NCBI GenBank assembly: GCA_019828565.1
Contig: JAHDYR010000050.1
Coordinates: 58,512 to 122,511 of the forward strand
DNA from: Carpediemonas membranifera BICM
Lineage: Eukaryota > Protista > Fornicata
Length of the DNA stretch: 64,000 bases
Direction of reading: 5' to 3'
The translations under genes and the position numbers were made by a program. The notes under the pieces were generated by a model. It ran no database searches. It was not told the DNA's origin and worked only from the letters and a program-made list of their open reading frames with translations. Of the stretch, positions 16,799-64,000 are shown in pieces (within the stretch, counting starts at the first letter, position 1; each line of letters begins with the position of its first letter).

Positions 16799-16828
16799 TG
16801 CTGGGGATCATTACCGCAGTGTTAACAC

Positions 16829-37133: not shown

Positions 37134-39690
37134 CTATCTTCTCGGGCGAAGATTGTGCCCAGTCCTCCTCATCAGCTCCTCCGCTCGCTGCTCACTGTTG
37201 CACAGATTGCAGATGCAGAGAGTCTCATCCAGACCACTGTCCGCCGTCCTTACACAAATCGTCTTGGCTGTCTCGTCAACAGTGATGAGTTCCCGGATCT
37301 CCTCCGGCTCCTCACAGATACCCTTGACCCATCCACTAAACAGCGCATTCAGCGACTGTTGGCTCGCCTCCTATCCCAGTTGGGTACCTTAGTTAATAGA
37401 CGATTTCTCCAGGCGGCACACCGGTCGGCATCAAATAGACACGAGCAGAATGTGACAGACTTACACTGCCTTGCAATCGGCAACACCATACCATGCTTTC
37501 TTGATGAGCCACGGCGGGTGTAGTGAGCAAGGACACGACCGACCATTGTCTTCTGAGCCAGGAAGCCGAGAACCCAAGATCGATGCTTGTCCACTCGCAA
37601 CTGGGCATTGATGAGGAAATCACGTTCGAAGTACTCCTCAAGCAAATAGAACATCGGAAGCCGCAGTTTCGAGTGAACCTTGGGCAGAACTGACACCACT
37701 GCATTCAGATATAGCGAGCCGGTAAACTTGGGAGAGTAAGTCAGTCTGAGACCATCATTGAGCGTCGTAGCAACCGAGGAGCGACTCGATGGAAGGTCAT
37801 AGAACAACGTCAAGACATGGAACATGATGAACGTAGAAAAGGACGCCGCGTGATGGAAAGCGATTGTCTGGTGTGTCACGTGGTCAGAGGAGTAATACAA
37901 CGCCTGTAACTTGGCTGTAAGGAGTATGAAGGGCTGGAGTGACTGGTCAAACTCCTCAAGGTGCTCGTTGACTAGTGTCGCGAGCTTTCGTCTGTTCCAG
38001 CTCTGCTCGTTGCAGCCAGTTGTCCGCGTGAACAGCTTTTCAATCTGCTCAAGTGTGTGCACGTTCTGACCAGCGTGTTGAACCTTGACAAGGCCAAGCA
38101 GCGTCCAGAAGTCCTTCATAAGATAGTGACTCACATGCATGACAGGTGGAATGAACGTGACATCAGCGTACTTTGTGAGCACGTGAAGTGGGCCATCTAT
38201 CTCGTTGGCATAGGTCAGACATCTCGGTGACCATCGCGGGACCCAAACCGTGTCATGTCTTTCACGCCACCAGCGTCACGAAGACGGATGCTATCTGCGA
38301 TTGTCCAGCGATCGCAACGATTGGCAAACGGGTCGCTTGCGACCTTTCCCATGTGTAGGGAGGAGAATGGAGAGCGGTAGTATCGTCCCCGCTTGACGCC
38401 ACTAACAATCTGCAACGCTTTGTGATCGCCGCAGATCCCGAGCAGGCTGATGACAACACGGCTGCGTGGGAGCAACGAACTGTCACCACATGCGAAGGGG
38501 ATACCAATGAGCTTGTTCATTAGCCGCTGTACATCATCAAAGAACGAAGGAATGAGCTTCTCTGTGCCCTGAAATGTAAGAAGCGTCATGGGTGGGGTAA
38601 TCTTCTGTGGTAGGGCTGCTCCCTCGCGATCAATTATGCGATATTTGACCGCCGTACAGTCGGCCCGATATCCATCAAACCATAGGAGCATCTCAAGACC
38701 ATAAGCCTCCTGTCGGCTCTCCGGGTTAATAGTGACGGATTGAACGAACTTGCTTGACTTGATATCGCGCTGAACTCGGTCGGGGAACTTCAGCATGAAC
38801 TTAATCTGGGCGACAGGGTCATAGGACAGAGCGCTGATCACCATCCGGTGAGATTTCTTTGTTCCACGCGGAATGATGCCCATGTTCCGGCATAATCTCT
38901 GAATCTCCGGCAGCTTGGATGGATCATCATGCGAAATGTATAGCCGTGACTCCCCCGATATCTTCTCGAAGTGGTGAGCGAAGAGGCAGTCGTGTTCATC
39001 GAGAGTCTCTTGCAGGTCGGTGTGGGTGGTTGGGTCATATAGGACGTAAAAAGCCTCCGCGACTTCCACGCTACGCGTGAAACCGGCTCCTGCTTGACAT
39101 TGAAGCTCTTGGTTAGACACCCCATCACGCCCAGAGACATCGGGCTGCTCAGGAGTGAACGCGTTGACGTCCTCGATCAGTGTTGGGTCTGATATAACAG
39201 ATCGTATGGCTGGGATGGACAGCAGGTCATACCCAAGATTCTGGAGACTGTCTACCACCGGTGGAGTGTGAATTCCAAGGCGAACTCCCATGTCGGAGGC
39301 CATTGAAACAAATGCATGGCGGAGTCGGTCGTAGCGATTCTTCCCTAACTCGACGGCACAGATAATTGCCATGGCCGTGTATAGGCTCTTCGTCTTCGCC
39401 TCGTTGTCGACTCGCGTAACAGTCACATGAGCAGTGCTGTGATTCCTCATCAATGCGCTCCAATCAGCATTAACGACTGCACTACGTAACGTAGCATCAC
39501 TATGTGTCACCCTCAGTGGACATGACGTCAGGAAATCTCGGAGAATGCGCAAGCACTGCTCCTTGCTGTCTAAACGAAACGATTTGTCGCGGTTTCGGAG
39601 CAGAAACTCGTCTAAGACAGCGGTGATGATATATCCAAGAGAACTGTCCGCCCCATAGGTGATGACGACTTCCCAGTTCTCGAAACGCAT
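37134..39690 (-). pseudogene. RAG1/Transib/Chapaev-like DDE transposase, copy 2 (frameshifted)
   Basis: ORFs 38215-39690 and 37349-38182: LWFDGY, ICGDHK, YRSPF, PPVMH, RTTGCNE, LLEEYFERDF; collinear with copy 1. Acidic tail to a stop at 37134. Confidence 0.62.
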
Positions 39691-39835
39691 TGCTTCAATA
39701 GCAATAGGATAAATTTACAAAGTAAATACACAAATGTGCTGATGTAGGGCATGGTGGCGGATCTGGCGCTGGTGGCGGACGTGGAGACACTGGGGGTGCT
39801 CCACAACCACGTCCACTGCAAGGGTGACTCATGTA

Positions 39836-40094
39836 GAGTCGCCCGAAAAGCAGAAGCATGCGGACAACACAATAGAGGATGATTCAGAGATCGAGACAAG
39901 TGGTAAGAGGGTGAGGACTGAGTAAATGGATTGCAAATGAGTCTTTTTAATGTCTCACCACCTGTTTGGGCCTCAGCGCTGTCGTTCAGGCCAATCCACG
40001 TTTGTGGATCCGTGCAGTTTATGGCTTATCGACCGGACATCTCCTGAACTGAGCGCCAGGGGGCGGAGGTGGCGTTGGCGTGGGGCGTGGAGGC
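39836..40094. repeat. Inverted copy of 61382-61640 (and 63195-63453)
   Basis: Reverse-complement match read directly from the sequence. Confidence 0.9.
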
Positions 40095-40095
40095 A

Positions 40096-40879
40096 TCAGT
40101 GGCTTCTTCCAGCCAAGTGAACAAGTCTAGCATCGTATATCGCCAAGAGACGTTAAATGGTTACTAAAAGTTTATGTATATCGCCTGCGGCTTGTCAGAA
40201 CTCATACCGTGACTACCACCAGCCGTCATCACACCCCTAGCCCTACCCACACGTCCATTCTCTCCGATGCTGATTAAATCGTCCGGCCAGCGAGCCGGGG
40301 CCTTTCGCAAATTTAATATGGCCAAGAGACGTTATCTGCGGCTGAAAAGAGCCCCATATAACCCCCTATGAAGTTATACGGAGAAATCATCGCCGATTTT
40401 CACGTTTCGGCGAGCTCCGGCCAAGGGGTCCAGGAGTCAGCTTTTGGGGGAAGGTCTGTGGTGCTATAACGTACCTCGGGACGCACTGTGGAGGCCCCTA
40501 GAGTGCTCGGTCATGGCATGTCAGACCAAGGGTCCCTCAAATCTGGCCCCATTCAGGATGCACCCCCTAAATGTTCCGTTGCAAGCGTCTGACGGGCGTT
40601 CTCTGGATACCGACCAAGATGGAGGTCACGTGGATCAACGGACGATAATTACGGTATTCTGGCCATGCCTGGTACTCTCAAATCATCTATACTGCTCAGT
40701 GCTCCATTTATAGTTCATATCGTTTCGTCCTGATGGACTTATGGTACTTGATGTTGTTTAGGGATAATTGTTGCTTTAATGATGCTCTGCGCCCGCATAC
40801 TGATGTTTCTTAGTGTTGTGCACATGCCTACTACGTTAAAGCCGCCAGTATTCTTTCTATTCTTAAGATCCTCATTTCA
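40096..40879. repeat. 784-bp direct copy of 57041-57824 (OTU gene start and upstream region)
   Basis: Near-identical sequence; substitutions concentrated in the right half. Confidence 0.93.
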
Positions 40880-41537
40880 TTTTTTTGACGACGCGTCGAG
40901 ACAATTCATGCGTGCGCAGGGTACTAACAGGCTCAAACAACAGCTCTGTCTGAGTAGACGCCTCCTCTAGGTCTCGCACAGTCTGAGTCTCTGCATGCTC
41001 ACCCTGCGGCGAAAACTGCTGGCATTTTCCCACCATCCTCGGCTTATCAGGATCAGGACCCAGCGCAGTCATGTAAACAGGTACCTCAACCCGCTTCTCG
41101 ACTATCCTGACAGGCTGGGAGTCCCTGCGGGAAGGGGCTTGCGGGTGAACTCGCGTCCTGGTCGGCCCCCCGTTCGCCTCGTTGTGCAGAGCCTCCATGA
41201 AGGCATTGAAGCCGTCATCACGGCCCACCTTCTGCGTCACAAACGACATGACGCATGTGACCGACATCTCAAAGGATGCAAAATCGTCAGCACTGGAAAC
41301 ATCGCGATTGTGGCAGATTGAGTTTCGAGCTGCCAACAGCTCGCGTATATGTCTCTTATCAGCGTGGTGAAGATCAGGAACACGATGTAGGATCGCTTGC
41401 AAAAGCATAGCCGGATCCATCTCGCCACCGTCACCACGGTACCTCGCGATGTACTCCTGCAGCTTCGGAATCATCCTCAGTAGCGCTTCAAACATCATGC
41501 TGGCGTATCCTGCTGAATCCTTCACCCCAGAGCTCAT
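40872..41537 (-). pseudogene. HEPN protein copy 1, C-terminally truncated
   Basis: ELLAARNSICH retained; zinc finger lost at the array edge. Confidence 0.75.
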
Positions 41538-41841
41538 ATCGGTTTCTTCAGAACGAAATTCTAAAGAAATGTTCGGTGGTAAGTGAGATCACTGCGCATC
41601 TAGAGACAGCAGAAACGTAACCTACAGCCCATATTGATGTGGGCTGGTCTTATCCGGATGTCCAAGGACCTTGATTCGCTCTGGGGTAGTCCCCCCATGA
41701 CCGTCAGGCACGCGAACCGCATCCTGCACGAAGCGGGGATGCAGAGTCTGAAAAAGACCCATCTCTCTGTCCGATCTGGATACCCCCTGACGATAGATGG
41801 AATGAATGAAGCTGTAAACATATCCATTGACTCTGAATCTT

Positions 41842-42770
41842 TTATTTCTCCATCTGCGAGTTAAGCCAGGCCACTGCCTTTCCCGTCAGATATACCTTAC
41901 GCGTGTCGTGCACCTTCTTTGTTGCTCTTGCGGCTGAAGCATCAACAGTGGCCTGCTTCAACAAATCTCGGCAGCTAGACTTCGGCGTCTTGGTGCCACG
42001 CCGCGTGCAGGCCCACTCTCTATCGTCCACGGACTCACCACACACAACGCATGACCCTGCGAATACGGTCGGTGGCTTCTCCTTCAGCTTCTGTCGAAGC
42101 AGATCGCACATCGCGGTCTTGACGACGCGTCGAGACAATTCATGCGTGCGCAGGCTACTAACAGGCTCAAACAACAGCTCTGTCTGAGTAGACGCCTCCT
42201 CTAGGTCTCGCACAGTCTGAGTCTCTGCATGCTCACCCTGCGGCGAAAACTGCTGGCATTTTCCCACCATCCTCGGCTTATCAGGATCAGGACCCAGCGC
42301 AGTCATGTAAACAGGTACCTCAACCCGCTTCTCGACTATCCTGACAGGCTGGGAGTCCCTGCGGGAAGGGGCTTGCGGGTGAACTCGCGTCCTGGTCGGC
42401 CCCCGTTCGCCTCGTTGTGCAGAGCCTCCATGAAGGCATTGAAGCCGTCATCACGGCCCACCTTCTGCGTCACAAACGACATGACGCATGTGACCGACAT
42501 CTCAAAGGATGCAAAATCGTCAGCACTGGAAACATCGCGATTGTGGCAGATTGAGTTTCGAGCTGCCAACAGCTCGCGTATATGTCTCTTATCAGCGTGG
42601 TGAAGATCAGGAACACGATGTAGGATCGCTTGCAAAAGCATAGCCGGATCCATCTCGCCACCGTCACCACGGTACCTCGCGATGTACTCCTGCAGCTTCG
42701 GAATCATCCTCAGTAGCGCTTCAAACATCATGCTGGCGTATCCTGCTGAATCCTTCGCCCCAGAGCTCAT
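41842..42770 (-). pseudogene. HEPN protein copy 2, 1-bp deletion in a C-run
   Basis: Split into 42336-42770 and 41842-42306; may be a sequencing error. Confidence 0.7.
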
Positions 42771-43071
42771 ATCGGTTTCTTCAGAACGAAATTCTAAAGA
42801 AATGTTCGGTGGTAAGTGAGATCACTGCGCATCTAGAGACAGCAGAAACGTAACCTACAGCCCATATTGATGTGGGCTGGTCTTATCCGGATGTCCAAGG
42901 ACCTTGATTCGCTCTGGGGTAGTCCCCCATGACCGTCAGGCACGCGAACCGCATCCTGCACGAAGCGGGGATGCAGAGTCTGAAAAGACCCATCTCTCTG
43001 TCCGATCTGGATACCCCTGACGATAGATGGAATGAATGAAGCTGTAAACATATCCATTGACTCTGAATCTT

Positions 43072-44001
43072 TTATTTCTCCATCTGCGAGTTAAGCCAGG
43101 CCACTGCCTTTCCCGTCAGATATACCTTACGCGTGTCGTGCACCTTCTTTGTTGCTCTTGCGGCTGAAGCATCAACAGTGGCCTGCTTCAACAAATCTCG
43201 GCAGCTAGACTTCGGCGTCTTGGTGCCACGCCGCGTGCAGGCCCACTCTCTATCGTCCACGGACTCACCACACACAACGCATGACCCTGCGAATACGGTC
43301 GGTGGCTTCTCCTTCAGCTTCTGTCGAAGCAGATCGCACATCGCGGTCTTGACGACGCGTCGAGACAATTCATGCGTGCGCAGGCTACTAACAGGCTCAA
43401 ACAACAGCTCTGTCTGAGTAGACGCCTCCTCTAGGTCTCGCACAGTCTGAGTCTCTGCATGCTCACCCTGCGGCGAAAACTGCTGGCATTTTCCCACCAT
43501 CCTCGGCTTATCAGGATCAGGACCCAGCGCAGTCATGTAAACAGGTACCTCAACCCGCTTCTCGACTATCCTGACAGGCTGGGAGTCCCTGCGGGAAGGG
43601 GCTTGCGGGTGAACTCGCGTCCTGGTCGGCCCCCCGTTCGCCTCGTTGTGCAGAGCCTCCATGAAGGCATTGAAGCCGTCATCACGGCCCACCTTCTGCG
43701 TCACAAACGACATGACGCATGTGACCGACATCTCAAAGGATGCAAAATCGTCAGCACTGGAAACATCGCGATTGTGGCAGATTGAGTTTCGAGCTGCCAA
43801 CAGCTCGCGTATATGTCTCTTATCAGCGTGGTGAAGATCAGGAACACGATGTAGGATCGCTTGCAAAAGCATAGCCGGATCCATCTCGCCACCGTCACCA
43901 CGGTACCTCGCGATGTACTCCTGCAGCTTCGGAATCATCCTCAGTAGCGCTTCAAACATCATGCTGGCGTATCCTGCTGAATCCTTCGCCCCAGAGCTCA
44001 T
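43072..44001 (-). CDS. Swt1-like HEPN domain protein with C-terminal Cys cluster, copy 3
   Basis: MDPAMLLQAI..HIRELLAARNSICH (Rx4H); CVVC..C..C. Confidence 0.78.
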   Translation of the reverse strand: MSSGAKDSAGYASMMFEALLRMIPKLQEYIARYRGDGGEMDPAMLLQAILHRVPDLHHADKRHIRELLAARNSICHNRDVSSADDFASFEMSVTCVMSFVTQKVGRDDGFNAFMEALHNEANGGPTRTRVHPQAPSRRDSQPVRIVEKRVEVPVYMTALGPDPDKPRMVGKCQQFSPQGEHAETQTVRDLEEASTQTELLFEPVSSLRTHELSRRVVKTAMCDLLRQKLKEKPPTVFAGSCVVCGESVDDREWACTRRGTKTPKSSCRDLLKQATVDASAARATKKVHDTRKVYLTGKAVAWLNSQMEK

Positions 44002-44304
44002 ATCGGTTTCTTCAGAACGAAATTCTAAAGAAATGTTCGGTGGTAAGTGAGATCACTGCGCATCTAGAGACAGCAGAAACGTAACCTACAGCCCATATTG
44101 ATGTGGGCTGGTCTTATCCGGATGTCCAAGGACCTTGATTCGCTCTGGGGTAGTCCCCCCATGACCGTCAGGCACGCGAACCGCATCCTGCACGAAGCGG
44201 GGATGCAGAGTCTGAAAAAGACCCATCTCTCTGTCCGATCTGGATACCCCTGACGATAGATGGAATGAATGAAGCTGTAAACATATCCATTGACTCTGAA
44301 TCTT

Positions 44305-45234
44305 TTATTTCTCCATCTGCGAGTTAAGCCAGGCCACTGCCTTTCCCGTCAGATATACCTTACGCGTGTCGTGCACCTTCTTTGTTGCTCTTGCGGCTGA
44401 AGCATCAACAGTGGCCTGCTTCAACAAATCTCGGCAGCTAGACTTCGGCGTCTTGGTGCCACGCCGCGTGCAGGCCCACTCTCTATCGTCCACGGACTCA
44501 CCACACACAACGCATGACCCTGCGAATACGGTCGGTGGCTTCTCCTTCAGCTTCTGTCGAAGCAGATCGCACATCGCGGTCTTGACGACGCGTCGAGACA
44601 ATTCATGCGTGCGCAGGGTACTAACAGGCTCAAACAACAGCTCTGTCTGAGTAGACGCCTCCTCTAGGTCTCGCACAGTCTGAGTCTCTGCATGCTCACC
44701 CTGTGGCGAAAACTGCTGGCATTTTCCCACCATCCTCGGCTTATCAGGATCAGGACCCAGCGCAGTCATGTAAACAGGTACCTCAACCCGCTTCTCGACT
44801 ATCCTGACAGGCTGGGAGTCCCTGCGGGAAGGGGCTTGCGGGTGAACTCGCGTCCTGGTCGGCCCCCCGTTCGCCTCGTTGTGCAGAGCCTCCATGAAGG
44901 CATTGAAGCCGTCATCACGGCCCACCTTCTGCGTCACAAACGACATGACGCATGTGACCGACATCTCAAAGGATGCAAAATCGTCAGCACTGGAAACATC
45001 GCGATTGTGGCAGATTGAGTTTTGAGCTGCCAACAGCTCGCGTATATGTCTCTTATCAGCGTGGTGAAGATCAGGAACACGATGTAGGATCGCTTGCAAA
45101 AGCATAGCCGGATCCATCTCGCCACCGTCACCACGGTACCTCGCGATGTACTCCTGCAGCTTCGGAATCATCCTCAGTAGCGCTTCAAACATCATGCTGG
45201 CGTATCCTGCTGAATCCTTCGCCCCAGAGCTCAT
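44305..45234 (-). CDS. HEPN protein copy 4 (motif R to Q)
   Basis: AQNSICH. Confidence 0.75.
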   Translation of the reverse strand: MSSGAKDSAGYASMMFEALLRMIPKLQEYIARYRGDGGEMDPAMLLQAILHRVPDLHHADKRHIRELLAAQNSICHNRDVSSADDFASFEMSVTCVMSFVTQKVGRDDGFNAFMEALHNEANGGPTRTRVHPQAPSRRDSQPVRIVEKRVEVPVYMTALGPDPDKPRMVGKCQQFSPQGEHAETQTVRDLEEASTQTELLFEPVSTLRTHELSRRVVKTAMCDLLRQKLKEKPPTVFAGSCVVCGESVDDREWACTRRGTKTPKSSCRDLLKQATVDASAARATKKVHDTRKVYLTGKAVAWLNSQMEK

Positions 45235-45538
45235 ATCGGTTTCTTCAGAACGAAATTCTAAAAGAAATGTTCGGTGGTAAGTGAGATCACTGCGCATCTA
45301 GAGACAGCAGAAACGTAACCTACAGCCCATATTGATGTGGGCTGGTCTTATCCGGATGTCCAAGGACCTTGATTCGCTCTGGGGTAGTCCCCCCATGACC
45401 GTCAGGCACGCGAACCGCATCCTGCACGAAGCGGGGATGCAGAGTCTGAAAAAGACCCATCTCTCTGTCCGATCTGGATACCCCTGACGATAGATGGAAT
45501 GAATGAAGCTGTAAACATATCCATTGACTCTGAATCTT

Positions 45539-46468
45539 TTATTTCTCCATCTGCGAGTTAAGCCAGGCCACTGCCTTTCCCGTCAGATATACCTTACGCG
45601 TGTCGTGCACCTTCTTTGTTGCTCTTGCGGCTGAAGCATCAACAGTGGCCTGCTTCAACAAATCTCGGCAGCTAGACTTCGGCGTCTTGGTGCCACGCCG
45701 CGTGCAGGCCCACTCTCTATCGTCCACGGACTCACCACACACAACGCATGACCCTGCGAATACGGTCGGTGGCTTCTCCTTCAGCTTCTGTCGAAGCAGA
45801 TCGCACATCGCGGTCTTGACGACGCGTCGAGACAATTCATGCGTGCGCAGGGTACTAACAGGCTCAAACAACAGCTCTGTCTGAGTAGACGCCTCCTCTA
45901 GGTCTCGCACAGTCTGAGTCTCTGCATGCTCACCCTGTGGCGAAAACTGCTGGCATTTTCCCACCATCCTCGGCTTATCAGGATCAGGACCCAGCGCAGT
46001 CATGTAAACAGGTACCTCAACCCGCTTCTCGACTATCCTGACAGGCTGGGAGTCCCTGCGGGAAGGGGCTTGCGGGTGAACTCGCGTCCTGGTCGGCCCC
46101 CCGTTCGCCTCGTTGTGCAGAGCCTCCATGAAGGCATTGAAGCCGTCATCACGGCCCACCTTCTGCGTCACAAACGACATGACGCATGTGACCGACATCT
46201 CAAAGGATGCAAAATCGTCAGCACTGGAAACATCGCGATTGTGGCAGATTGAGTTTTGAGCTGCCAACAGCTCGCGTATATGTCTCTTATCAGCGTGGTG
46301 AAGATCAGGAACACGATGTAGGATCGCTTGCAAAAGCATAGCCGGATCCATCTCGCCACCGTCACCACGGTACCTCGCGATGTACTCCTGCAGCTTCGGA
46401 ATCATCCTCAGTAGCGCTTCAAACATCATGCTGGCGTATCCTGCTGAATCCTTCGCCCCAGAGCTCAT
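45539..46468 (-). CDS. HEPN protein copy 5 (motif R to Q)
   Basis: AQNSICH. Confidence 0.75.
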   Translation of the reverse strand: MSSGAKDSAGYASMMFEALLRMIPKLQEYIARYRGDGGEMDPAMLLQAILHRVPDLHHADKRHIRELLAAQNSICHNRDVSSADDFASFEMSVTCVMSFVTQKVGRDDGFNAFMEALHNEANGGPTRTRVHPQAPSRRDSQPVRIVEKRVEVPVYMTALGPDPDKPRMVGKCQQFSPQGEHAETQTVRDLEEASTQTELLFEPVSTLRTHELSRRVVKTAMCDLLRQKLKEKPPTVFAGSCVVCGESVDDREWACTRRGTKTPKSSCRDLLKQATVDASAARATKKVHDTRKVYLTGKAVAWLNSQMEK

Positions 46469-46770
46469 ATCGGTTTCTTCAGAACGAAATTCTAAAGAAA
46501 TGTTCGGTGGTAAGTGAGATCACTGCGCATCTAGAGACAGCAGAAACGTAACCTACAGCCCATATTGATGTGGGCTGGTCTTATCCGGATGTCCAAGGAC
46601 CTTGATTCGCTCTGGGGTAGTCCCCCCATGACCGTCAGGCACGCGAACCGCATCCTGCACGAAGCGGGGATGCAGAGTCTGAAAAGACCCATCTCTCTGT
46701 CCGATCTGGATACCCCTGACGATAGATGGAATGAATGAAGCTGTAAACATATCCATTGACTCTGAATCTT

Positions 46771-47701
46771 TTATTTCTCCATCTGCGAGTTAAGCCAGGC
46801 CACTGCCTTTCCCGTCAGATATACCTTACGCGTGTCGTGCACCTTCTTTGTTGCTCTTGCGGCTGAAGCATCAACAGTGGCCTGCTTCAACAAATCTCGG
46901 CAGCTAGACTTCGGCGTCTTGGTGCCACGCCGCGTGCAGGCCCACTCTCTATCGTCCACGGACTCACCACACACAACGCATGACCCTGCGAATACGGTCG
47001 GTGGCTTTCTCCTTCAGCTTCTGTCGAAGCAGATCGCACATCGCGGTCTTGACGACGCGTCGAGACAATTCATGCGTGCGCAGGGTACTAACAGGCTCAA
47101 ACAACAGCTCTGTCTGAGTAGACGCCTCCTCTAGGTCTCGCACAGTCTGAGTCTCTGCATGCTCACCCTGTGGCGAAAACTGCTGGCATTTTCCCACCAT
47201 CCTCGGCTTATCAGGATCAGGACCCAGCGCAGTCATGTAAACAGGCACCTCAACCCGCTTCTCGACTATCTTGACAGGCTGGGAGCCCCTGCGGGAAGGG
47301 GCTTGCGGGTGAACTCGCGTCCTGGTCGGCCCCCCGTTCGCCTCGTTGTGCAGAGCCTCCATGAAGGCATTGAAGCCGTCATCACGGCCCACCTTCTGCG
47401 TCACAAACGACATGACGCATGTGACCGACATCTCAAAGGATGCAAAATCGTCAGCACTGGAAACATCGCGATTGTGGCAGATTGAGTTTCGAGCTGCCAA
47501 CAGCTCGCGTATATGTCTCTTATCAGCGTGGTGAAGATCAGGAACACGATGTAGGATCGCTTGCAAAAGCATAGCCGGATCCATCTCGCCACCGTCACCA
47601 CGGTACCTCGCGATGTACTCCTGCAGCTTCGGAATCATCCTCAGTAGCGCTTCAAACATCATGCTGGCGTATCCTGCTGAATCCTTCGCCCCAGAGCTCA
47701 T
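46771..47701 (-). pseudogene. HEPN protein copy 6, 1-bp insertion before the zinc finger
   Basis: Extra T near 47006; Rx4H intact. Confidence 0.7.
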
Positions 47702-48003
47702 ATCGGTTTCTTCAGAACGAAATTCTAAAGAAATGTTCGGTGGTAAGTGAGATCACTGCGCATCTAGAGACAGCAGAAACGTAACCTACAGCCCATATTG
47801 ATGTGGGCTGGTCTTATCCGGATGTCCAAGGACCTTGATTCGCTCTGGGGTAGTCCCCCCATGACCGTCAGGCACGCGAACCGCATCCTGCACGAAGCGG
47901 GGATGCAGAGTCTGAAAAGACCCATCTCTCTGTCCGATCTGGATACCCCTGACGATAGATGGAATGAATGAAGCTGTAAACATATCCATTGACTCTGAAT
48001 CTT

Positions 48004-52977: not shown

Positions 52978-53637
52978 ATGAAGCTCACCAACAAGGCAGA
53001 TACTGTGATTACGGCGGAGGAATACCAGCAATACTACTCCTCTGATGACTTTGAGTCATTTGTTGCGGCCTGTGATGAAGCAGGCATTCGTTCTGCCCAC
53101 AGCACCACGTTCTCCGTCACAGTGGACAAGAATGGCTTCAACAGCGAGCTAGATCTGGCCATGGTGCCTCAGCATGCGCTTATGGGTCCGACAGTGGGCG
53201 ATGGTATCCTTACCAACAAGAGCATCCCCAACGACGCAGTCATTGGCATATACTGCGGCAAGATCATCCCCGAGCCCGAACCTGGTGCAGTCACGACCTA
53301 CGTGACGAGGCTCAAGAAGCCTAACAACTTTGCTGTTGACTCGGCCGGCCTCACGTTCGGCTGTCACAAGATCAACGATGGTGCCGCTTTCTACAACGTC
53401 GTACCGGGGACGGCCTACGTTAATGTGCAGGTGGGGGACCAGAAGAAGCGTCTTCCCGTCATTCTTTACTTGGCGGATCGCGCTATTGCCAAGTTCGAGT
53501 ACCTCTCGATCGAGTATGGCGAGCAGTACTGGCGTGGACGCAAGCCCATGGCCCTCTACCCCTTCTGTCTGGAGAAGATGCTTGCTGAGGCTGAGTATGA
53601 GGAGATCAACGATGTCTTAGACGCCGTTCTCTCCTAA
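52978..53637 (+). CDS. Stand-alone SET-domain lysine methyltransferase-like protein
   Basis: GDGILTNKSIP..IGIYCGKI, CHKIND, ADRAIAKFEYLSIEYGEQYW. Confidence 0.88.
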   Translation: MKLTNKADTVITAEEYQQYYSSDDFESFVAACDEAGIRSAHSTTFSVTVDKNGFNSELDLAMVPQHALMGPTVGDGILTNKSIPNDAVIGIYCGKIIPEPEPGAVTTYVTRLKKPNNFAVDSAGLTFGCHKINDGAAFYNVVPGTAYVNVQVGDQKKRLPVILYLADRAIAKFEYLSIEYGEQYWRGRKPMALYPFCLEKMLAEAEYEEINDVLDAVLS

Positions 53638-53810: not shown

Positions 53811-54656
53811 ATGGAACTGGATATTGCGTATCAACTGGTTGCTCTGAAGGAGATGAAGTCTATTGAGTCTCTTAAGATCAATTCCATCACGATTCAGAAG
53901 GAAAAGGTCCGGAAAGCTGTCATTCTTGCTTTCGCGCAGTCTCCCGCGGGTAAGAAGTGGGTAACGAGCACACTGAGGCTCTGTGCTGACCGCTACAGCG
54001 CTTCGATCCAGTACAACGTGCAGAGCATGTTGTTTGGCATGAACTCCAACGCCACATTCAACGAGGAGGCAGCAATAGCGACTCTGCGCGTTCATGAGAG
54101 GCTCTTGACCCCGCTACACCAGTCAGTCTTCGCTAACATGGTCAGGGCCAAGCACACGACACCGACTCTAGACGATTTCCTCGATACCGCGTGTGTCTTC
54201 CCGACTTTTACTGAGTTGGATCGCCTTGCCGCATGGGTGGGTGAGCGCAACCCCAGTGTCTGGGTCATCATGACGGAGGCTCGTATTACTGGCGTTTTAG
54301 ATGGTGAGATCTATGAGCCGCTGCTTCGGGCCGTTGCTGACGACGTTGATAGATTCACGTTCGGCAGCCCTGAAAAGTTCCTCCAGTTAACCGACACGAG
54401 CCTTGACTATGCCGTCGAGAGTGTCCAGATCAAGGACTATGCCAATCGTCGCTGCCTTGTCAAGTGGATCGGGTATCCTGTGCCTGTCACCGTTCCGCTG
54501 ACCGATACGTTGCGTGAGCTGGAGGCTGGGGAAACCTCGGGGTTTGTGGGCTTGCGACGGGAGATAACCTTCTCTGGGCGGGGTCGTACAACCGGGGAAA
54601 TTCAGAACAATCTTTTCAGGCGTCGGGAACCCGAGCCTGACGTTTCTGAGGAGTAA
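53811..54656 (+). CDS. Protein with C-terminal chromodomain
   Basis: DYAVESVQ..RCLVKWIGYP..TVPL. Confidence 0.7.
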   Translation: MELDIAYQLVALKEMKSIESLKINSITIQKEKVRKAVILAFAQSPAGKKWVTSTLRLCADRYSASIQYNVQSMLFGMNSNATFNEEAAIATLRVHERLLTPLHQSVFANMVRAKHTTPTLDDFLDTACVFPTFTELDRLAAWVGERNPSVWVIMTEARITGVLDGEIYEPLLRAVADDVDRFTFGSPEKFLQLTDTSLDYAVESVQIKDYANRRCLVKWIGYPVPVTVPLTDTLRELEAGETSGFVGLRREITFSGRGRTTGEIQNNLFRRREPEPDVSEE

Positions 54657-55065: not shown

Positions 55066-57078
55066 TTACTTCTTCACTGACCATCTCCTCCTCTTCAGCC
55101 CGGGAGGAACCTTGCGCAGAGTGGCGTGTCCCCTTGTCACTTCGACCGCATACTCGATTTCCCACTCGCGACACTGTTGGGCAAAACACGCCAGGGCGCT
55201 CTGGCCGTTTTCGTTGGGCTTAAACGCGACATGTGTCACCTTGCCCTCCTCAGACTTGCTAAAAACGTACATGCCGACGACTGGATCGATCTTTGGGTCA
55301 AAATCCCGGACAACATGGAGGTATGCAACGGACTTTCCAGTCATTGAGCACCAGGCTTCAACAGCCCACTGAGTTAACCACTTCTCCTGCATGATTGGCT
55401 TACCGATGTTGCCCTCCTCCGTGACAGTGTGTACACTGCACACTTCATGGAAAAGTTCGTCCCGGAGACCCTCCTCGGGCCGCCTGTACCCCGGAGTGGC
55501 CCGCCGGTTCATCTCTATCGCTTCCTTGTATATCTGCTCGCGGTAGTTGTCCGCCTTCGTCTCCGCTGCACACTGCTCTTCATTCGTCATCGTCTCCCAG
55601 CTCTTGAACGCATGAGGCTCCGTGACGCCCTCGATCATCATGAGGCAGTGTGTTATACAGTTGCCGTGGGGCAGGGTTTTGTATCTGACCCACTGCTTGC
55701 TCTTCTCCAGCTGATTGGCGACGTCAACTCTAAACTTGACTTCCCTGCTCCTCATCTGCTCGGAAGCTGGGTCGACGTGGTCGACCTGGACATATTCAAC
55801 GTCCGACTCAGCCTCGAATGCCACCTCGTTGTCTGCCTCTTGCTCCTTATCTGCCTCACGCTTCTCCTCTGACTCTGCATTCACCTCTGACTCAGCCATC
55901 TCGTCCTCCTGCTCCTCCTCCTCTGCCTCACCCTCCTCCACTGGCTCCTCTTCCTCCTCTGACTCCTCCTCCGAGTCCTCAGGCCTGGCCTTCTCGGGCG
56001 TGATGATGAGGGCCTTGCGCTTCACAGACATGGAGGCCTCGGGCTCGTTCGTAGCGCGTCGGGGGCAGGAAGTCCTGGAGAGCGTGCCAGACTGTGGCGG
56101 CATGGGGCTGGCGGCGAACGAAACATCGCAGGAAGCAAGGTACCCAACGTCATGCTCATGATGGATACGCCTGCACTCAAGAAAATGGTCTCTTCTCTCG
56201 TCAGTCACCTGCTTCTTCAGCCGCTCGACCTGCTCCTTGAGAGATTGGATCTCCGTCTTCTGGGCAGAGATCAGACTGGCTGTCACGCGACGTACGACTC
56301 GAGCTTCAGCAGGGAGTCTCGTGGTCAACGTCTTCTCGCCAGTAAGCGCCTGAGTATCGATCTGGTCGGCCCAGAGATAGCGCTGAAGCACGTGGTCGGC
56401 GTGATCCTCGCCGGGACAGGGGGCGTTATCCTTGCGGGCCCGCACACGACGAGTACCGCAGATCTCATCGTACACTCGCTCCCATACCACGTCATACTTG
56501 GACTCGCGCGTGTATTCCATCTCCTTTTCCAACTCCTTCCGGTCTTCCTCATCGGCCAGCTTCATCATCTGAACCCGAGTACAATCCCTGATGTCCTCGT
56601 CCTCCTCCTTCGCGAGTTCACACTCAAGCCTAGCGTTTGTCTTCTTTCTAGCCTCACGAATGCTCTTCTTCACCCGAATACGCGCGCTCTCCACCTCGCC
56701 GTCGTACAGGTGCGTGAAGGTATCCCCGCCGAGGACCTGCTTCAGTGTTTTCTTGTGTTCCCCTGTGACCCTTTCACCCTCATTCAATTTCATCGTCGCC
56801 ATAAACTGCGCCTTAAGGTCCTTCTTCATATCTTCCGTCTCCTGGCGCGTGAGGCGGAAGAACGTGGCAATACGCTTGAGATTAACACCTGTGTAAACAA
56901 TTTCGCTCAGTAACGTACGTTCCTTGATCACAGTAGCGAGTAAATCGCGCCTAGGCAGCAAAAGCGCGCGAAGGACGTCGAATTTGCCTTTAGCGCTTGC
57001 AGTTGCATTGATCTTGGTCATTAGCTCCTTCTTATCGAACTCAGTGGCTTCTTCCAGCCAAGTGAACAAGTCTAGCAT
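55066..57078 (-). CDS. Coiled-coil/acidic protein with C-terminal OTU-like cysteine protease (deubiquitinase)
   Basis: KTLPHGNCITHCL (Cys box), YREQI, KWLTQWAVEAW, VTRGHA (His box). Confidence 0.72.
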   Translation of the reverse strand: MLDLFTWLEEATEFDKKELMTKINATASAKGKFDVLRALLLPRRDLLATVIKERTLLSEIVYTGVNLKRIATFFRLTRQETEDMKKDLKAQFMATMKLNEGERVTGEHKKTLKQVLGGDTFTHLYDGEVESARIRVKKSIREARKKTNARLECELAKEEDEDIRDCTRVQMMKLADEEDRKELEKEMEYTRESKYDVVWERVYDEICGTRRVRARKDNAPCPGEDHADHVLQRYLWADQIDTQALTGEKTLTTRLPAEARVVRRVTASLISAQKTEIQSLKEQVERLKKQVTDERRDHFLECRRIHHEHDVGYLASCDVSFAASPMPPQSGTLSRTSCPRRATNEPEASMSVKRKALIITPEKARPEDSEEESEEEEEPVEEGEAEEEEQEDEMAESEVNAESEEKREADKEQEADNEVAFEAESDVEYVQVDHVDPASEQMRSREVKFRVDVANQLEKSKQWVRYKTLPHGNCITHCLMMIEGVTEPHAFKSWETMTNEEQCAAETKADNYREQIYKEAIEMNRRATPGYRRPEEGLRDELFHEVCSVHTVTEEGNIGKPIMQEKWLTQWAVEAWCSMTGKSVAYLHVVRDFDPKIDPVVGMYVFSKSEEGKVTHVAFKPNENGQSALACFAQQCREWEIEYAVEVTRGHATLRKVPPGLKRRRWSVKK

Positions 57079-58298: not shown

Positions 58299-58311
58299 GA
58301 AAACTCGTGTT

Positions 58312-59508
58312 ATGGAGGTTCTAGCTGCAAATAACGACGATATTGTTAAGCGCTGGTCTGATAGAGTTTCAGTGAAGACGCGTAGTGTGTACAAGAAGCA
58401 CCTGGATGACGTTTTGGCCAGCATTTGCCAGGAAACAGGCGCTGAAATGCAGAAGGGCATCGAGATTGTCCGAAGCGACAACGTTACGACTTATTTGGCG
58501 CATTATTTCGCTACAAAGACGCCTGCTATGGCTAAGAGGATCGTTTCGGCTGTTCAGTCTTTCCGGAACTTCGACTTGCCACACCCCGCGAAGCCGTTGT
58601 CCTGGAAAGAGGAGGAAGAGGTGTCGCCTGCATCAGTTGAGAGTCTCCCCAGCCCGTATGGCGCCATTGCCATTCTGCTCAACCAGACGGGCTGGGAGTA
58701 TTCGTATCTCCAAGGTAATCTCCCCGATGCGATAGACCTTACCTCGTGCCCGAGCTGGATGGGCTTTGGCACGCTCAAATCGGGATTCCCGCAGGCCAGT
58801 GCTGTATCGGAGGCGCTCAAGGTTCAGGGGTTGACGGTTCGCATGCTTCGCTTTGCGCAGCGGATCGACGTGTCCACCGATAGGATGCAGTCTATCGGCA
58901 CGCTAGAGCGCCGCGGCAGACCGCAGGAGAAGCCTCAGAAGGTCATTAAGGACAAGCGCATCAGCCTGACCGATGAGCAGTTCAGGCACCAGTTGGCGTC
59001 CAGTCACTTAACGACCACGCGGCGCCCAACGATCCTCGATCTCAACCCGGAGATCCGAAGCTCTGCCGACCTGGTGCCGCCGATGCTCGATGACTGGCTT
59101 TACAACAGGCTCAAGGCCAGAATGATCGAGCTTCACGATACTAAGAAGAAAGAGAGGCAAAGCGAGGCTGACAAGGAGGCGGAGTTCGGCTCGCCGACTC
59201 GCGAGACAGAGATGCCAGAGGGCGAGAGAGAGGGCGATACTGACTAGGAGGCGGTGTCCGACGAGCCAGCTTACCAGGCAGAGTGGATGCACTACGAGGT
59301 GCCAGCTCGCGAGGAGAGCGAGGAGGGCGCCTTTGGTGAGGAGGTGGACTTATGCAAGAGTGCCGATGAGGAACCAAAGATCGACCACGACGAGCATGGC
59401 GGGGAGGTGGCGGGCAGAGATGGTGATGGGGAGATTCAAGAGAACGTGATTGATGAGGAGCGCTCAGAGAGCGATACTGCCGACAGTATCGTCTTTTCCT
59501 TCATCTGA
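58312..59508 (+). CDS. Degenerate tyrosine-recombinase-like protein with acidic tail (in-frame TAG at 59245-59247)
   Basis: KTRSVYKKHL..VTTYLAH..RIVSAVQSFRNF resembles the integrase core-binding domain. AILLNQTGWEYSYL resembles the LL-TG-R-SE-L box without Arg; LTVRMLR resembles H-x-LR. The frame stays open after the TAG up to 59508. Confidence 0.4.
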
Positions 59509-59672
59509 CATTGTAAAGAGGAAGAGTTTATGATTGGAGCATAGCTGATGTCCATAAACACCATTCATAAGCCAGTCCTGGCTTGTTTTCCACTGCTACT
59601 TCTCTCGTTGCGACGTACAGCTAGCTGTCGCGAAATGCACTTTAAGACCAATTTTCACACAGCTACCTGTGC

Positions 59673-60977
59673 ATGGTGTTCGAGCTAGATAGCGACAAGC
59701 TGGAGCGACTTACTTCCTTACCTGGTAATAGTAGACAATATCTGCACGACTTTGAACCTGAAAAGCTGCAGGTCGTGATCAAAGTTGATGAGCATTATGG
59801 TATGGAGGTTCCCACCCTGCTAGCGCTCAAGGACAGTCCGCATGTCCTCCCTGTCGTCGATACAGGTTTTGTCGACCGTGATCCAGCCTTCATGGCTCCT
59901 TTGGTCAACTGTACCCCCTTCGCTGGCATCTGCAAGGCTCACTCCAGCGTGCAGTTCCGCTATGTTTCGCATCTGCTGCAGGCAGTATGCTACATGCATG
60001 ACCACGGGGTTGTCCATTGCGATATTAAGCCAGACAACTTCCTCTTCAGCAAGAGTCAGAAGGGATACCTCATTGATTTTGGGTCTGCAATGAGGAAGCC
60101 GGCTAATGGCGACGACAGGTGGGCCATACAACTGAGATTCGCATCCGAGTATCGCGGCACCCATGGATATTTGCCCCCAGAGCTTTTCTACGAGTACCTT
60201 GTCTCGCGCTCAGTGATTCCTGCTGCACGCGACACCTCCAAGCTCGCGCGCATGACGGCAGGGGCTCTTTCCGTCACTTCTTATGTCGTGACACCTGCAT
60301 CGGACATTTACTCTTGCGGTATTGTCATTATGATGCTCGTTAACGGTCTCTCTAAGTCCCCCTTTGCCGCGAAGGTGACTGACATGGGTGCAAACATGGC
60401 GCAGATCGACAACAAGAAGAAGAAGAAGATGCTGAAGCTTGGTAGCTTGCTGAACTGGTGCCAATTCTATGGTGGGCAGTTGCAGTTGTCACCTCAGGCA
60501 CAGACACATTTCAAAGATTTCCTCGAGTGTGTCAATGTGAACTCTGAGCTCCCGATTCGCGGCACCACGCCACCTACTTGTCTCAGCCTGTACGACCTGG
60601 CAATGCAGATGCTCCACTTCGACCCTGCGAAGCGTCCCACTGCTGCCGAATGTCTTGAAAAGCTCAAGGTCATCATGCGCGTGCATGAATGCGTCGCCAA
60701 GCCGAGTCCGCTTCTGTTAGATGATACAGAAGAGGTCACCCTGTCTGCAGCTCAGCGAAAGAGACTGACCGACTGCTGTCAGCGAGGGTTTGAGGGTCAA
60801 GTCTTCTATCGGCGCTGCATAGTGTGTGGTAGAGACCTTCATGGACGCGAGAACGTCAGCTGTGACACATGCCACAAGGGATACAGGCAGGTGAGCACCA
60901 ATAAGTGCGCAAAAGGTGTGCGCGGAAGACTGCACAGGCAGTTTATTGCAATGATTGAGCGGACGAAAAGAGATTGA
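59673..60977 (+). CDS. Ser/Thr protein kinase with C-terminal C4 zinc finger
   Basis: VVIK, HCDIKPDNFLF, IDFG, GTHGYLPPE, DIYSCG, RPTA; CIVC..CDTC. No glycine-rich loop visible. Confidence 0.93.
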   Translation: MVFELDSDKLERLTSLPGNSRQYLHDFEPEKLQVVIKVDEHYGMEVPTLLALKDSPHVLPVVDTGFVDRDPAFMAPLVNCTPFAGICKAHSSVQFRYVSHLLQAVCYMHDHGVVHCDIKPDNFLFSKSQKGYLIDFGSAMRKPANGDDRWAIQLRFASEYRGTHGYLPPELFYEYLVSRSVIPAARDTSKLARMTAGALSVTSYVVTPASDIYSCGIVIMMLVNGLSKSPFAAKVTDMGANMAQIDNKKKKKMLKLGSLLNWCQFYGGQLQLSPQAQTHFKDFLECVNVNSELPIRGTTPPTCLSLYDLAMQMLHFDPAKRPTAAECLEKLKVIMRVHECVAKPSPLLLDDTEEVTLSAAQRKRLTDCCQRGFEGQVFYRRCIVCGRDLHGRENVSCDTCHKGYRQVSTNKCAKGVRGRLHRQFIAMIERTKRD

Positions 60978-61091
60978 TACTTTCTGTGATGCAGGAATGA
61001 GATCAATGCTGCTGACAGGTCTCGAGATGGCAGAGGTGCTGGAGAAGAGAGCGCAGAAAAGGCATCAGAAGTAAATGTCCTAAGGAGATGT

Positions 61092-64000
61092 AACAGAAGT
61101 AGCAAGCAATGTTTAATAACGTATGAACAGTCCTTTTGATGTTGTTTAGTGATTTTGTGCATTAACGACCGAGAACAGTGGAGTGCAACGCAGATGTTGG
61201 TTATTGATGGTAGATGGCGCGCTTTTGACGACAGCTGGTTGCTTTTGCAGTATAAAGAACCGCATAGCTGCCACTAGTTCCTTCCAATAATGCTTTCCCG
61301 CCATTTTGAGGTTGGAATGAAATTCCAAGCACCGTGCACTTTATGTAATTGCCCAATATCAACGCCACCCCCGCCCCCAGCGCCTCCACGCCCCACGCCA
61401 ACGCCACCTCCGCCCCCTGGCGCTCAGTTCAGGAGATGTCCGGTCGATAAGCCATAAACTGCACGGATCCACAAACGTGGATTGGCCTGAACGACAGCGC
61501 TGAGGCCCAAACAGGTGGTGAGACATTAAAAAGACTCATTTGCAATCCATTTACTCAGTCCTCACCCTCTTACCACTTGTCTCGATCTCTGAATCATCCT
61601 CTATTGTGTTGTCCGCATGCTTCTGCTTTTCGGGCGACTCATGGGTCACCGCCGCGGTTTGTCCGAGACCAAATGCCATTCTTGCAAACGCCATAAGGTC
61701 TGGCGGGAATGTACTGCTTGTCGTCAGAGCATTGTAGATCTCAGGACGGATATCTTTCGCCGTTGAGTAAACCATGCACAGATGACTGTGAACAATGAGG
61801 GTGCTCAAGCCCCTGACTGTATCGTTATCCTTCGGGATCATTCGGTTCTTCAGCAAGGAAGTGAAGTCGGCGAAGTGGATGATGATGACACCAATGATGT
61901 TGTGGAACTTTGACATCATGCTTTCTGTCTCACCCATCAGTTTCAGACGCTCCACAACGTTGTTGTAGAAGGGGGTCTTCGTTATGTTAAGGCGTGTGGA
62001 AAGTGCACCTTGCTTGTTCGCCTGGACAAAGATCCTCTGCTGCTGAAGAGCCACTGAGAGCAGGGCGTCGCTGGGGGCCACGTTTTCGTTATACTTAATC
62101 TTCTGGCTTGACAAACAGTCGTAGAGACAAAGCTGGTAAGCAATCCAGGCCCGAATAACTCGGACGTTGTTCTCCTGGAATGAGTGTTCCAGCTCGTGAA
62201 GGGTCGACTCACTGGCGTTGAAACCATCCATCCCAGAGATATCGATGGTAATGGCAGAGTTTTTCGGCACGCTGCGAATCCACGTTTCAAGGCTTGTCTC
62301 TTCCTGGCGGCTGAGGTTCTTGAGTGGTACGATGACCTGCTGTTGTGTCGGGGCAGGCGTACCAGCGCGTCGCGGCGCCAGCTGTCCCACTTCTTTGTCT
62401 GCACCTTCTTCTTCGCAGACTTGGTGGTCTTGGGCTGAAGCTTGGATGCAGGCTTGGCGGTTTCTCCTACCGCGACAGGCACATCTTCAATGGGCTCTTG
62501 GGGAATCTCCGCCAGGAGATCTAGCTCTTTCATGATAGACGGGCTGTCGGCGAAGAGATCGCGCAAGAAACGGTCGAATGCTCTGTCAAACTCACCAGAA
62601 ATGACCGCGGCGATATTTCGGGCCTGTCTGTTGTTTCTTTCTGATGGGACAGCGCCACAAGTAAGCTCAATAGCAGCAATAAGCTGCTGCAAATGCAGTT
62701 CTGACTCCAGAGTGTCCATTGCTGCATAAGCTGCACATGAATCCAGCCTGGTCGATTCCTTCACGCGGCAGACAAGAAGAGAGACGTGCCAGGCATGGCA
62801 CTCTCTCTGGCAATGGCAAGTCTTCAACGGGAAGCCGCGAACGCCTCGTTGATCTGTCTTGGCATTTGTTGAGGACAACACAGCTGTAAACGACAATAAG
62901 ATGAAACAGAAGTAGCAAGCAATGTTTAATAACGTATGAACAGTCCTTTTGATGTTGTTTAGTGATTTTGTGCATTAACGACCGAGAACAGTGGAGTGCA
63001 ACGCAGATGTTGGTTATTGATGGTAGATGGCGCGCTTTTGACGACAGCTGGTTGCTTTTGCAGTATAAAGAACCGCATAGCTGCCACTAGTTCCTTCCAA
63101 TAATGCTTTCCCGCCATTTTGAGGTTGGAATGAAATTCCAAGCACCGTGCACTTTATGTAATTGCCCAATATCAACGCCACCCCCGCCCCCAGCGCCTCC
63201 ACGCCCCACGCCAACGCCACCTCCGCCCCCTGGCGCTCAGTTCAGGAGATGTCCGGTCGATAAGCCATAAACTGCACGGATCCACAAACGTGGATTGGCC
63301 TGAACGACAGCGCTGAGGCCCAAACAGGTGGTGAGACATTAAAAAGACTCATTTGCAATCCATTTACTCAGTCCTCACCCTCTTACCACTTGTCTCGATC
63401 TCTGAATCATCCTCTATTGTGTTGTCCGCATGCTTCTGCTTTTCGGGCGACTCATGGGTCACCGCCGCGGTTTGTCCGAGACCAAATGCCATTCTTGCAA
63501 ACGCCATAAGGTCTGGCGGGAATGTACTGCTTGTCGTCAGAGCATTGTAGATCTCAGGACGGATATCTTTCGCCGTTGAGTAAACCATGCACAGATGACT
63601 GTGAACAATGAGGGTGCTCAAGCCCCTGACTGTATCGTTATCCTTCGGGATCATTCGGTTCTTCAGCAAGGAAGTGAAGTCGGCGAAGTGGATGATGATG
63701 ACACCAATGATGTTGTGGAACTTTGACATCATGCTTTCTGTCTCACCCATCAGTTTCAGACGCTCCACAACGTTGTTGTAGAAGGGGGTCTTCGTTATGT
63801 TAAGGCGTGTGGAAAGTGCACCTTGCTTGTTCGCCTGGACAAAGATCCTCTGCTGCTGAAGAGCCACTGAGAGCAGGGCGTCGCTGGGGGCCACGTTTTC
63901 GTTATACTTAATCTTCTGGCTTGACAAACAGTCGTAGAGACAAAGCTGGTAAGCAATCCAGGCCCGAATAACTCGGACGTTGTTCTCCTGGAATGAGTGT
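61092..64000. repeat. Tandem repeat, 1813-bp unit (1.6 copies in window)
   Basis: Sequence from 61092 recurs from 62905. Confidence 0.96.
61551..62896 (-). CDS. Hypothetical protein, split by one frameshift near 62390; repeated from 63364
   Basis: ORFs 61982-62896 and 61551-62390 overlap; basic NLS-like segments; no recognised domain. Confidence 0.55.

Follow-up and report, generated by a model that had tools for sequence, protein, structure and literature searches.

The 64,000-nucleotide stretch of contig JAHDYR010000050.1 analyzed here (assembly GCA_019828565.1, positions 58,512 to 122,511 of the forward strand; hereafter, the window) comes from the fornicate protist Carpediemonas membranifera BICM and contains two copies of a transposase with a predicted RAG1 fold. 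We divided the window into a left block (positions 1 to 6777) with transposase copy 1, a nest of long terminal repeat (LTR) retrotransposons with one long interspersed nuclear element (LINE) (6778 to 36118), and the block in question (36119 to 64000), in which copy 2 lies beside a row of other genes, among them a kinase, a SET-domain gene, and an RCC1-like gene (Table 1). Since the same kinds of cargo genes were found beside distant relatives of this transposase, the region is probably a copy, now rearranged and in decay, of a large cut-and-paste transposon from a RAG1-fold lineage with exchangeable chromatin and signaling cargo upstream of the transposase.

Table 1. Features of the window, with positions counted from its first nucleotide
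Feature	Position	Strand	Remarks
Left-block PHD finger	1020-1360	+	Pfam PHD 5.8e-6, above cut-off
Left-block RCC1-like paralog	2226-3101	-	Paralog match 4e-15
Transposase copy 1	3229..5802	+	Subfamily other than that of copy 2; P0029 and P0035 map to the locus
Candidate terminus of copy-1 element, CACACCCATAC	6767..6777	-	Abuts truncated LTR RNase H
Nest of chromodomain Ty3/Gypsy-type LTR elements and one LINE	6778..36118	.	Flanked by the 3' ends of the two convergent transposase genes
3' tail of copy 2, continuing into gag start of LTR element	36119..37133	-	About 1 kb; length like the 870- to 975-nt tails of L001 and copy 1
Transposase copy 2, RAG1-fold DDE (predicted)	37134..39690	-	Three frames; breaks near 38220 and 37370
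Inverted fragment of 61382-61650 (3' end of 61.5-kb gene)	39823..40094	+	98.5% over 272 nt
Direct copy of 57041-57824 (5' end and upstream region of OTU-like gene)	40096..40879	+	97.8% over 784 nt
HEPN-like gene, tandem array of 6.9 x 1233 nt	40885..49439	-	309-aa gene per unit, zinc-ribbon tail; starts and stops mid-gene
Degenerate RCC1-like propeller gene	49477..51006	-	Two near-identical copies on other contigs
400-aa gene of no found family (52-kb gene)	51709..52910	-	Frame break at 52173; P0013 maps in two frames at 99%
Stand-alone SET-domain gene	52978..53637	+	Identical on 3 contigs
Gene with possible C-terminal chromo-like domain	53811..54656	+	E 0.05 against LTR chromodomain model
670-aa gene, acidic linker, OTU-like Cys/His spacing at C-terminus	55066..57078	-	Motif by eye
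Tyrosine-recombinase-like gene	58312..59247	+	Atlas lead 0.93
Ser/Thr kinase with C-terminal zinc ribbon	59673..60977	+	Pfam 1.9e-23
Gene or gene pair of no found family, two overlapping frames (61.5-kb gene)	61551..62719	-	226-aa part identical on 3 contigs
Tandem duplicate of 61086-62187, continuing past window edge	62899..64000	-	99.9% over 1102 nt

Transposase family and predicted fold

Copy 2 aligns in three pieces, at 99.6 to 100% identity, to an intact 854-amino-acid protein (P0001), and its cluster holds 6 members at ≥99% identity on 6 contigs, near-identical 854-amino-acid copies among them; copy number and linkage on other contigs were read from the protein cluster labels of C. membranifera. 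A HMMER scan over 1.84 billion representatives yielded 14 relatives, and word-indexed homolog searches retrieved just 2 family proteins. By cluster look-ups of 12 representatives (10 of the 13 distant matches were looked up), the family comprises 17 labeled proteins on 12 contigs in 7 clusters, plus 5 representatives from short unlabeled contigs. Five further loci came from one metagenome scan (L001 to L005; transposases 26 to 27% identical), and 3 of the 5 extend upstream. Copy 1 belongs to the same family as copy 2 (1e-24) and is frame-broken, mostly at homopolymer runs; some frame breaks in the window lie in such runs and could reflect sequencing errors. In a midpoint-rooted tree of 14 rows with no known outgroup, copies 1 and 2 fall in separate clades, and the L-locus transposases P0020 and P0021 form part of the sister group to the clade of copy 2 (support, 99/98).

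At least seven subfamilies, less than 90% identical to each other, retain the catalytic residues. D339 and D422 are invariant in all 14 alignment rows and E691 in all 12 rows that reach that position, with E687 and E688 likewise conserved; the acidic triad falls on strand 1, strand 4, and a late helix, and from their order D339, D422, and E691 would be the counterparts of the RAG1 acidic residues. An AlphaFold2 model made from the 14-sequence alignment (pLDDT, 74.9), used in place of a single-sequence model (pLDDT, 34) that was set aside, has a predicted RNase H topology with a helical insertion, superposable on RAG1/Transib. Foldseek returned 27 matches to this model at an E value of ≤0.001, of which the 19 displayed were all RAG1 and the other 8 were extra chains of listed entries. 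The top seven rows of the VIA search comprised RAG1 (Z, 11.5; root mean square deviation [rmsd], 5.8; 424 residues aligned), ProtoRAG (Z, 10.7), the P element transposase (Z, 10.6), and HzTransib (Z, 9.0), scores so nearly tied that the superfamily is not settled. Atlas clusters of Transposase_21 and RAG1, at 0.85 to 0.87, are leads only. Ahead of the RNase H core, residues 195 to 285 of P0001 are modeled as an inserted ferredoxin-like (ACT/RRM-type) domain (VIA Z up to 8.5).

A preliminary description made from the DNA letters had called this transposase RAG1/Transib-like, which the matches to RAG1, ProtoRAG, and HzTransib and the conserved D339, D422, and E691 bear out, and had named KDZ/Plavaka-associated fungal clusters as known carriers of SET modules, a label that does not fit here, since none of the 16 family members gave a Pfam transposase match (nor a THAP match) and the C(2)C and H(3-4)H zinc motifs defining the CMCT clade are not conserved in the alignment. 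In the zinc region, a Cys stands in 6 of 14 rows but is not paired with another, and the protein of the window lacks it; the invariant His is in H(2)H spacing (H521-x2-H524), and a late His, in 8 of 13 rows, is without a partner. A PDB sequence search with the transposase found nothing. Other elements of this kind may have escaped annotation, because Pfam and ordinary sequence searches miss the family entirely.

Cargo genes and rearrangements of the block

The open reading frames (ORFs) beside copy 2 are in place, compact and intron-free as first described, with 71% coding sequence between 49.5 and 64 kb; 4 of the 10 ATG-to-stop cargo translations match annotated proteins verbatim, and 6 had no exact look-up match. 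In NCBIfam, PHROGs, and PADLOC searches of the block proteins, the kinase alone was recognized; its C-terminal double zinc ribbon (Pfam E, 3e-4) stays below the cut-off. The SET gene contains the GxG, H/N, and YG motifs, and while alone it reaches just 0.044 in Pfam, a four-sequence profile matches EHMT1 at 1.6e-6, confirming at the sequence level a histone-methyltransferase-type SET domain. The RCC1-like gene is homologous to a canonical RCC1 protein of L002 (phmmer, 1.4e-6; shuffle Z, 16.7), with no Pfam match and no significant match in a PDB sequence search. Units of the HEPN-like array are 99.3 to 99.8% identical and match Pfam HEPN_Swt1 (Swt1-like) at an E value of 0.0012, below the cut-off. 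The RxxxxH motif is present in five of the seven units and has R changed to Q in two; these two units are adjacent (motifs at 45007 and 46241), and frameshifts were seen in other units.

The remaining cargo genes are assigned more loosely. The chromo-like gene was the best of 38 proteins against a home-made hidden Markov model of LTR chromodomains, yet at an E value of just 0.05, and neither Pfam nor PDB searches support the domain. For the OTU-like gene, Pfam and PDB searches were negative, and a pair test against an OTU-like protein of L002 was not significant (Z, 0.3). The 10 best Atlas matches with a family for the recombinase-like gene all belong to the tyrosine-recombinase N-terminal family or clan (score, 0.93; 105 to 115 of 256 features in common), which we regard as a lead; Pfam and PDB gave no match, the catalytic R/H/Y residues were not seen by eye, and the protein is probably catalytically dead. 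Searches of Pfam, NCBIfam, and PHROGs, together with PADLOC for the 52-kb gene, gave no family for either the 52-kb gene, which has two other copies, or the 61.5-kb gene, which also has two near-identical cluster members. No dioxygenase was found in the scanned cargo of the window, L002, or L005.

Of the gene identities first proposed, the kinase, SET, and RCC1-like assignments thus hold, the zinc ribbon and HEPN are below cut-off, the chromo and OTU assignments did not go beyond motifs, and the recombinase is a lead. For the left block, the claimed transposase family and RCC1-like paralog were recovered, while of the PHD fingers reported there one exceeds the Pfam cut-off. The 6.9-unit extent of the HEPN array and the broken frames of both transposase copies go beyond that account.

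The block of copy 2 is rearranged, with an inversion, duplications, and the 6.9 x 1233-nt array, and its element is likely nonautonomous and decaying. The internal duplications said to tie the block to copy 2, inverted at 39823 to 40094 and direct at 40096 to 40879, were confirmed, the inverted fragment lying 133 nt upstream of the transposase start. A 240-nt noncoding duplicate (51388 to 51627 = 54657 to 54896) stands behind two different cargo genes.

Related junctions occur elsewhere. In P0031, which belongs to another subfamily, the first 38 residues are identical to the antisense of the 61.5-kb gene, so that on a second contig, too, this gene borders the start of a transposase; the layout of this junction is divergent, as with the inverted fragment of the window, and the same contig also carries the SET and 52-kb genes. 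L002 and L003 have no mismatch over 3,398 nt (transposase plus tail) and about 70% DNA identity upstream; the identical stretch has its boundary within the first transposase codons instead of at a CAC end, and both loci have homologous cargo upstream of it.

The retroelement nest is outside the transposase elements. Its LINE of about 10.6 kb (24318 to 34950; endonuclease, reverse transcriptase, and degraded frames) sits inside an LTR gag-pol, where it is flanked by an 18-nt target duplication and ends in a (TTTC)n tail. The C-terminal 34 residues of P0002 come from the same LINE sequence, so that the LINE interrupts the P0002 transposase locus too. An intact chromodomain Ty3/Gypsy-type element (12532 to 16958; one ORF of 1,327 amino acids) has 130-nt LTRs that are 99% identical and is therefore a recent insertion. 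Long imperfect palindromes were found near candidate element ends (6396 to 6530, 6674 to 6755, and 36140 to 36175) and upstream of the recombinase-like gene (58098 to 58301), and L003 and L005 have similar ones. Rfam and tRNA searches gave 0 matches.

Linkage, element ends, and competing explanations

Cargo lies on the 5' side of the transposase in both copies of the window and in L002, L003, and L005, in a gene order that is not the same in the window, L002, and L005. The 9.6 kb upstream of the L002 transposase encode a zinc-finger fragment, an RCC1 protein, a kinase with a zinc tail, an OTU-like protein, a SET protein, a protein judged caspase-like by eye, and unknowns; the 5.8 kb upstream in L005 encode two SET proteins, a GNAT, and a caspase-like protein; and L003 has a diverged copy of the last L002 cargo gene. 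The SET gene of the window aligns with the three SET genes of L002 and L005 at Z scores of 11.6, 11.0, and 6.9. Its kinase matches that of L002 (2.7e-9), with the architecture and an RxCIVCG tail motif common to both, although the two tails in global alignment are not significantly similar (Z, -0.2); the zinc tail of the HEPN gene is homologous to the L002 kinase tail (Z, 10.5). Two of the six other contigs with cargo copies or paralogs carry a more distant listed member of the transposase family.

Two side observations concern these loci. The caspase-like gene, not present in the window, is common to L002 (7671 to 8672) and L005 (2091 to 3152) (phmmer, 8.5e-24) and encodes Cys residues clustered at the N-terminus and a His...Cys spacing reminiscent of caspase/CHAT peptidases, with no Pfam or PDB match. 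In L002, a 39-nt inverted repeat (3677 to 3715 and 9658 to 9696) joins the kinase promoter region and the transposase start and is possibly a shared regulatory motif.

One candidate element end could be delimited. In L001 and L004, the transposase and a tail of about 0.9 kb are identical up to a boundary starting with CAC, beyond which the flanks differ; a second CAC candidate lies 21 nt further in, where the L002 and L003 sequences stop. The pattern CACACCCAWAC has one exact match in the window, at the copy-1 end candidate, which matches an element of the AanRAGL terminal inverted repeat (TIR) at 10 of 13 bases (PMC9435367), with the caution that the pattern was partly fitted afterwards and that six of its bases may instead belong to codons of the retroelement. 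Aligned with each other, the 3' tails of four transposases score no better than shuffles, and there was no left end near any transposase start examined. Long antisense open frames over the 3' tail cross the element end in L004 (2652 to 3917, minus strand) and L001 (2652 to 3452, minus strand).

On this evidence we propose that a terminal RAG1-fold transposase, transcribed toward the CAC end and with the cargo block upstream, would bind two CAC-starting ends, excise the element by nick and hairpin, and insert it with a short target site duplication (TSD), as extrapolated from RAG1/Transib biochemistry; the accessible part of PMC10462144 describes excision by nick and hairpin for both RAG and Transib. 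As the transposase would act on both ends, all DNA between them would move, at least 10 kb in L002 and possibly more than 27 kb in the window. The junctions suggest that recombination swaps transposase-plus-end modules and cargo blocks among subfamilies and that the window copy later underwent deletions, inversion, and tandem amplification. The SET, GNAT, PHD, chromo-, and OTU-like proteins would hold the chromatin of the element permissive, and the HEPN and kinase proteins would serve conflict or signaling; these roles are the least supported part of the model. The SET- and TET-bearing transposons described in the accessible part of PMC12730594 make it plausible, by analogy, that the cargo would counteract silencing.

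Several observations weigh against a large cargo transposon. No matching CAC end and no recognizable terminus of copy 2 were found in the window, and neither the window nor L001 to L005 yielded a left end, a paired TIR, a TSD, or an empty site; a near-perfect TIR-like motif occurs by chance within the RCC1 coding sequence of L002. The six other contigs on which cargo copies or paralogs were seen all lack a ≥99% copy of the copy-2 transposase, and the labeled copies J8273_8977 and 8991 are on one contig, 14 loci apart, and may be a duplicate of the block of the window rather than new insertions. L001 to L005 share an accession prefix and hence are probably from one source, so that the evidence for linkage comes from two sources. 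Hosts commonly have RCC1 and kinase families of their own. A test for selection on one cargo gene gave a dN/dS (ratio of nonsynonymous to synonymous substitution rates) of 0.67 over 207 codons. Finally, according to a review, transposition efficiency falls above about 6 kb of cargo (PMC6431247).

The large-element family first suggested therefore stands as to multicopy transposase and cargo, recurrent linkage, and a candidate CAC end with different flanks, and not as to paired ends, TSD, or an empty site, none of which were found; the TIR/TSD search proposed with it gave no pair in the window or L001 to L005. Co-occurrence of cargo and transposase was likewise seen in part, SET, RCC1, and kinase-zinc genes recurring upstream in L002 and L005 and a near-identical transposase being found on 0 of 6 other cargo contigs.

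An unlikely alternative is that a small transposon of about 3.5 to 4 kb, with the transposase alone, gathers in repeat islands in which SET, RCC1, and kinase families were amplified by segmental duplication or another vehicle, the linkage being a shared address. The window is a retroelement island, near-identical copies of the transposase and of cargo genes are on different contigs, and what L002 and L003 have in common is exactly the transposase and tail and not the upstream DNA. Yet that identity breaks within the first transposase codons, with no CAC end and with homologous cargo further upstream in both; no left end lies near any examined transposase start; and cargo is 5' of the transposase in the two copies of the window, L002, L003, and L005. 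Recombination, which a host multigene cluster of subtelomere-like type would use as its sole means of spread, with a domesticated or immobile transposase, is evident from the internal deletions, inversion, and tandem arrays and agrees with cargo copies on several small contigs. We hold such a cluster to be very improbable given that ≥7 transposase subfamilies retain catalytic residues, that one end has a sharp CAC boundary with different flanks, and that gene order varies between the window, L002, and L005.

In its compact intron-free genes, its SET/OTU-like/kinase/RCC1-like content, and its tandem gene amplification, the block recalls large DNA viruses, of which such features are typical; several of its ORFs are without a family, and no element was observed in full. 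The rival reading as an endogenous large DNA virus or Polinton-like element, with the RAG1-fold enzyme as its integrase and core genes beyond the sequence seen, is nevertheless improbable. Relatives of the transposase were absent from the viral contigs and prokaryote genomes searched, and relatives of SET from the viral contigs; of 38 proteins, the two kinases were the only ones to match the 15 viral loci with kinase genes, and these matches spanned the generic core of the kinase domain. A Walker A motif was found in 0 of 38 proteins and no PHROG match better than an E value of 0.004 in 21 proteins, the pattern scan and PHROGs both being weak tests for eukaryotic viruses. No capsid, DNA polymerase, or packaging ATPase gene was found among the proteins scanned in the sequence seen, which covers half of the 123,612-nt contig, in agreement with the initial observation that none of the three was seen.

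Comparison with known systems

Literature searches, with Repbase outside their scope, found no description of this transposase family; the string "transpos" is absent from the main text and 10 text-searchable supplements of PMC8516963, and Carpediemonas is not named in the searchable supplement of PMC9435367. The P element transposase is tied with ProtoRAG as a fold match (Z, 10.6; rmsd, 4.5; 293 residues aligned), but its aligned length is shorter, it is outside the Foldseek matches at an E value of ≤0.001, and the family has no THAP match in Pfam. The Transib/CMCT clade (EnSpm, Chapaev, Mirage, Plavaka, ESTA, and Lanisha) has a CA..TG-type end, like the candidate end of the present elements, and HzTransib scored as one of the best fold matches (Z, 9.0). 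In contrast, the C(2)C and H(3-4)H motifs by which the accessible part of PMC12730594 defines this clade are not conserved in our transposase family, and 16 of 16 members have no Pfam transposase match. Membership in KDZ/Plavaka was considered and rejected, with no Pfam transposase family matched in 16 members and no linked TET/JBP dioxygenase in the scanned cargo.

Transposons bearing chromatin-modifying genes are described in the same part of PMC12730594, namely TET/JBP in KDZ/Plavaka/ESTA and SET in HarbingerS and Phytophthora MuDR, with cargo exchanged between lineages. The present elements would resemble these in both respects, but those described there carry one such enzyme each, whereas here a multigene set of at least 10 kb is found with no TET/JBP and an unrelated transposase.

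The best structural match of the modeled transposase, over about 420 residues, is to RAG1 and its RAGL relatives (ProtoRAG; AanRAGL of the protist Aureococcus), with the same order of DDE residues and a candidate CAC-starting end (one end seen: the L001/L004 candidates and position 6777 of the window). A propeller-like gene and a PHD finger also occur near the transposase, RAG2 being a kelch-plus-PHD protein in the accessible part of PMC10462144. Against this likeness, the transposase is about 10% identical, without a PDB sequence match and without conserved zinc-site motifs; the propeller of the window is of RCC1 rather than kelch type and stands apart from the PHD finger, kilobases distant; and there are 5 to 10 extra genes instead of one partner. 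A RAG2-like kelch-PHD gene was not encountered, with no kelch match in the scanned ORFs of the window, L002, and L005, elements seen in part. To our knowledge, the cargo of natural DDE transposons is small, and RAG1 relatives are not known to have more than one partner gene.

Starships and Cryptons are giant tyrosine-recombinase elements with large cargo and the mobilizing gene at one end. The present elements would likewise combine large cargo with a terminal mobilizing gene, and the block contains a tyrosine-recombinase-like gene (an Atlas lead), but this gene is internal and, by eye, seemingly without catalytic residues, and the terminal gene is a DDE enzyme. Membership in Starships or Cryptons was rejected, as no catalytically intact tyrosine recombinase was seen as first gene.

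If the large cargo transposon is real, a RAG1-fold enzyme moving 10 to 30 kb or more of chromatin effectors would extend the RAG/Transib radiation to a deep-branching eukaryote, would allow anti-silencing by several transposon-borne enzymes to be tested, and would be a candidate large-cargo integrase. A bolder and decidedly tentative proposal is that metamonad protists host a new RAG1-fold lineage at superfamily level, without the canonical zinc site, moving elements of tens of kilobases that carry a modular set of chromatin proteins (SET and GNAT as writers, PHD and chromo as readers, an OTU-like eraser, a kinase, and a HEPN nuclease). Such elements would be DDE counterparts of the fungal Starships, and the propeller and PHD genes recurring in their cargo would illustrate a capture of the type that gave RAG2 to a Transib-like element.

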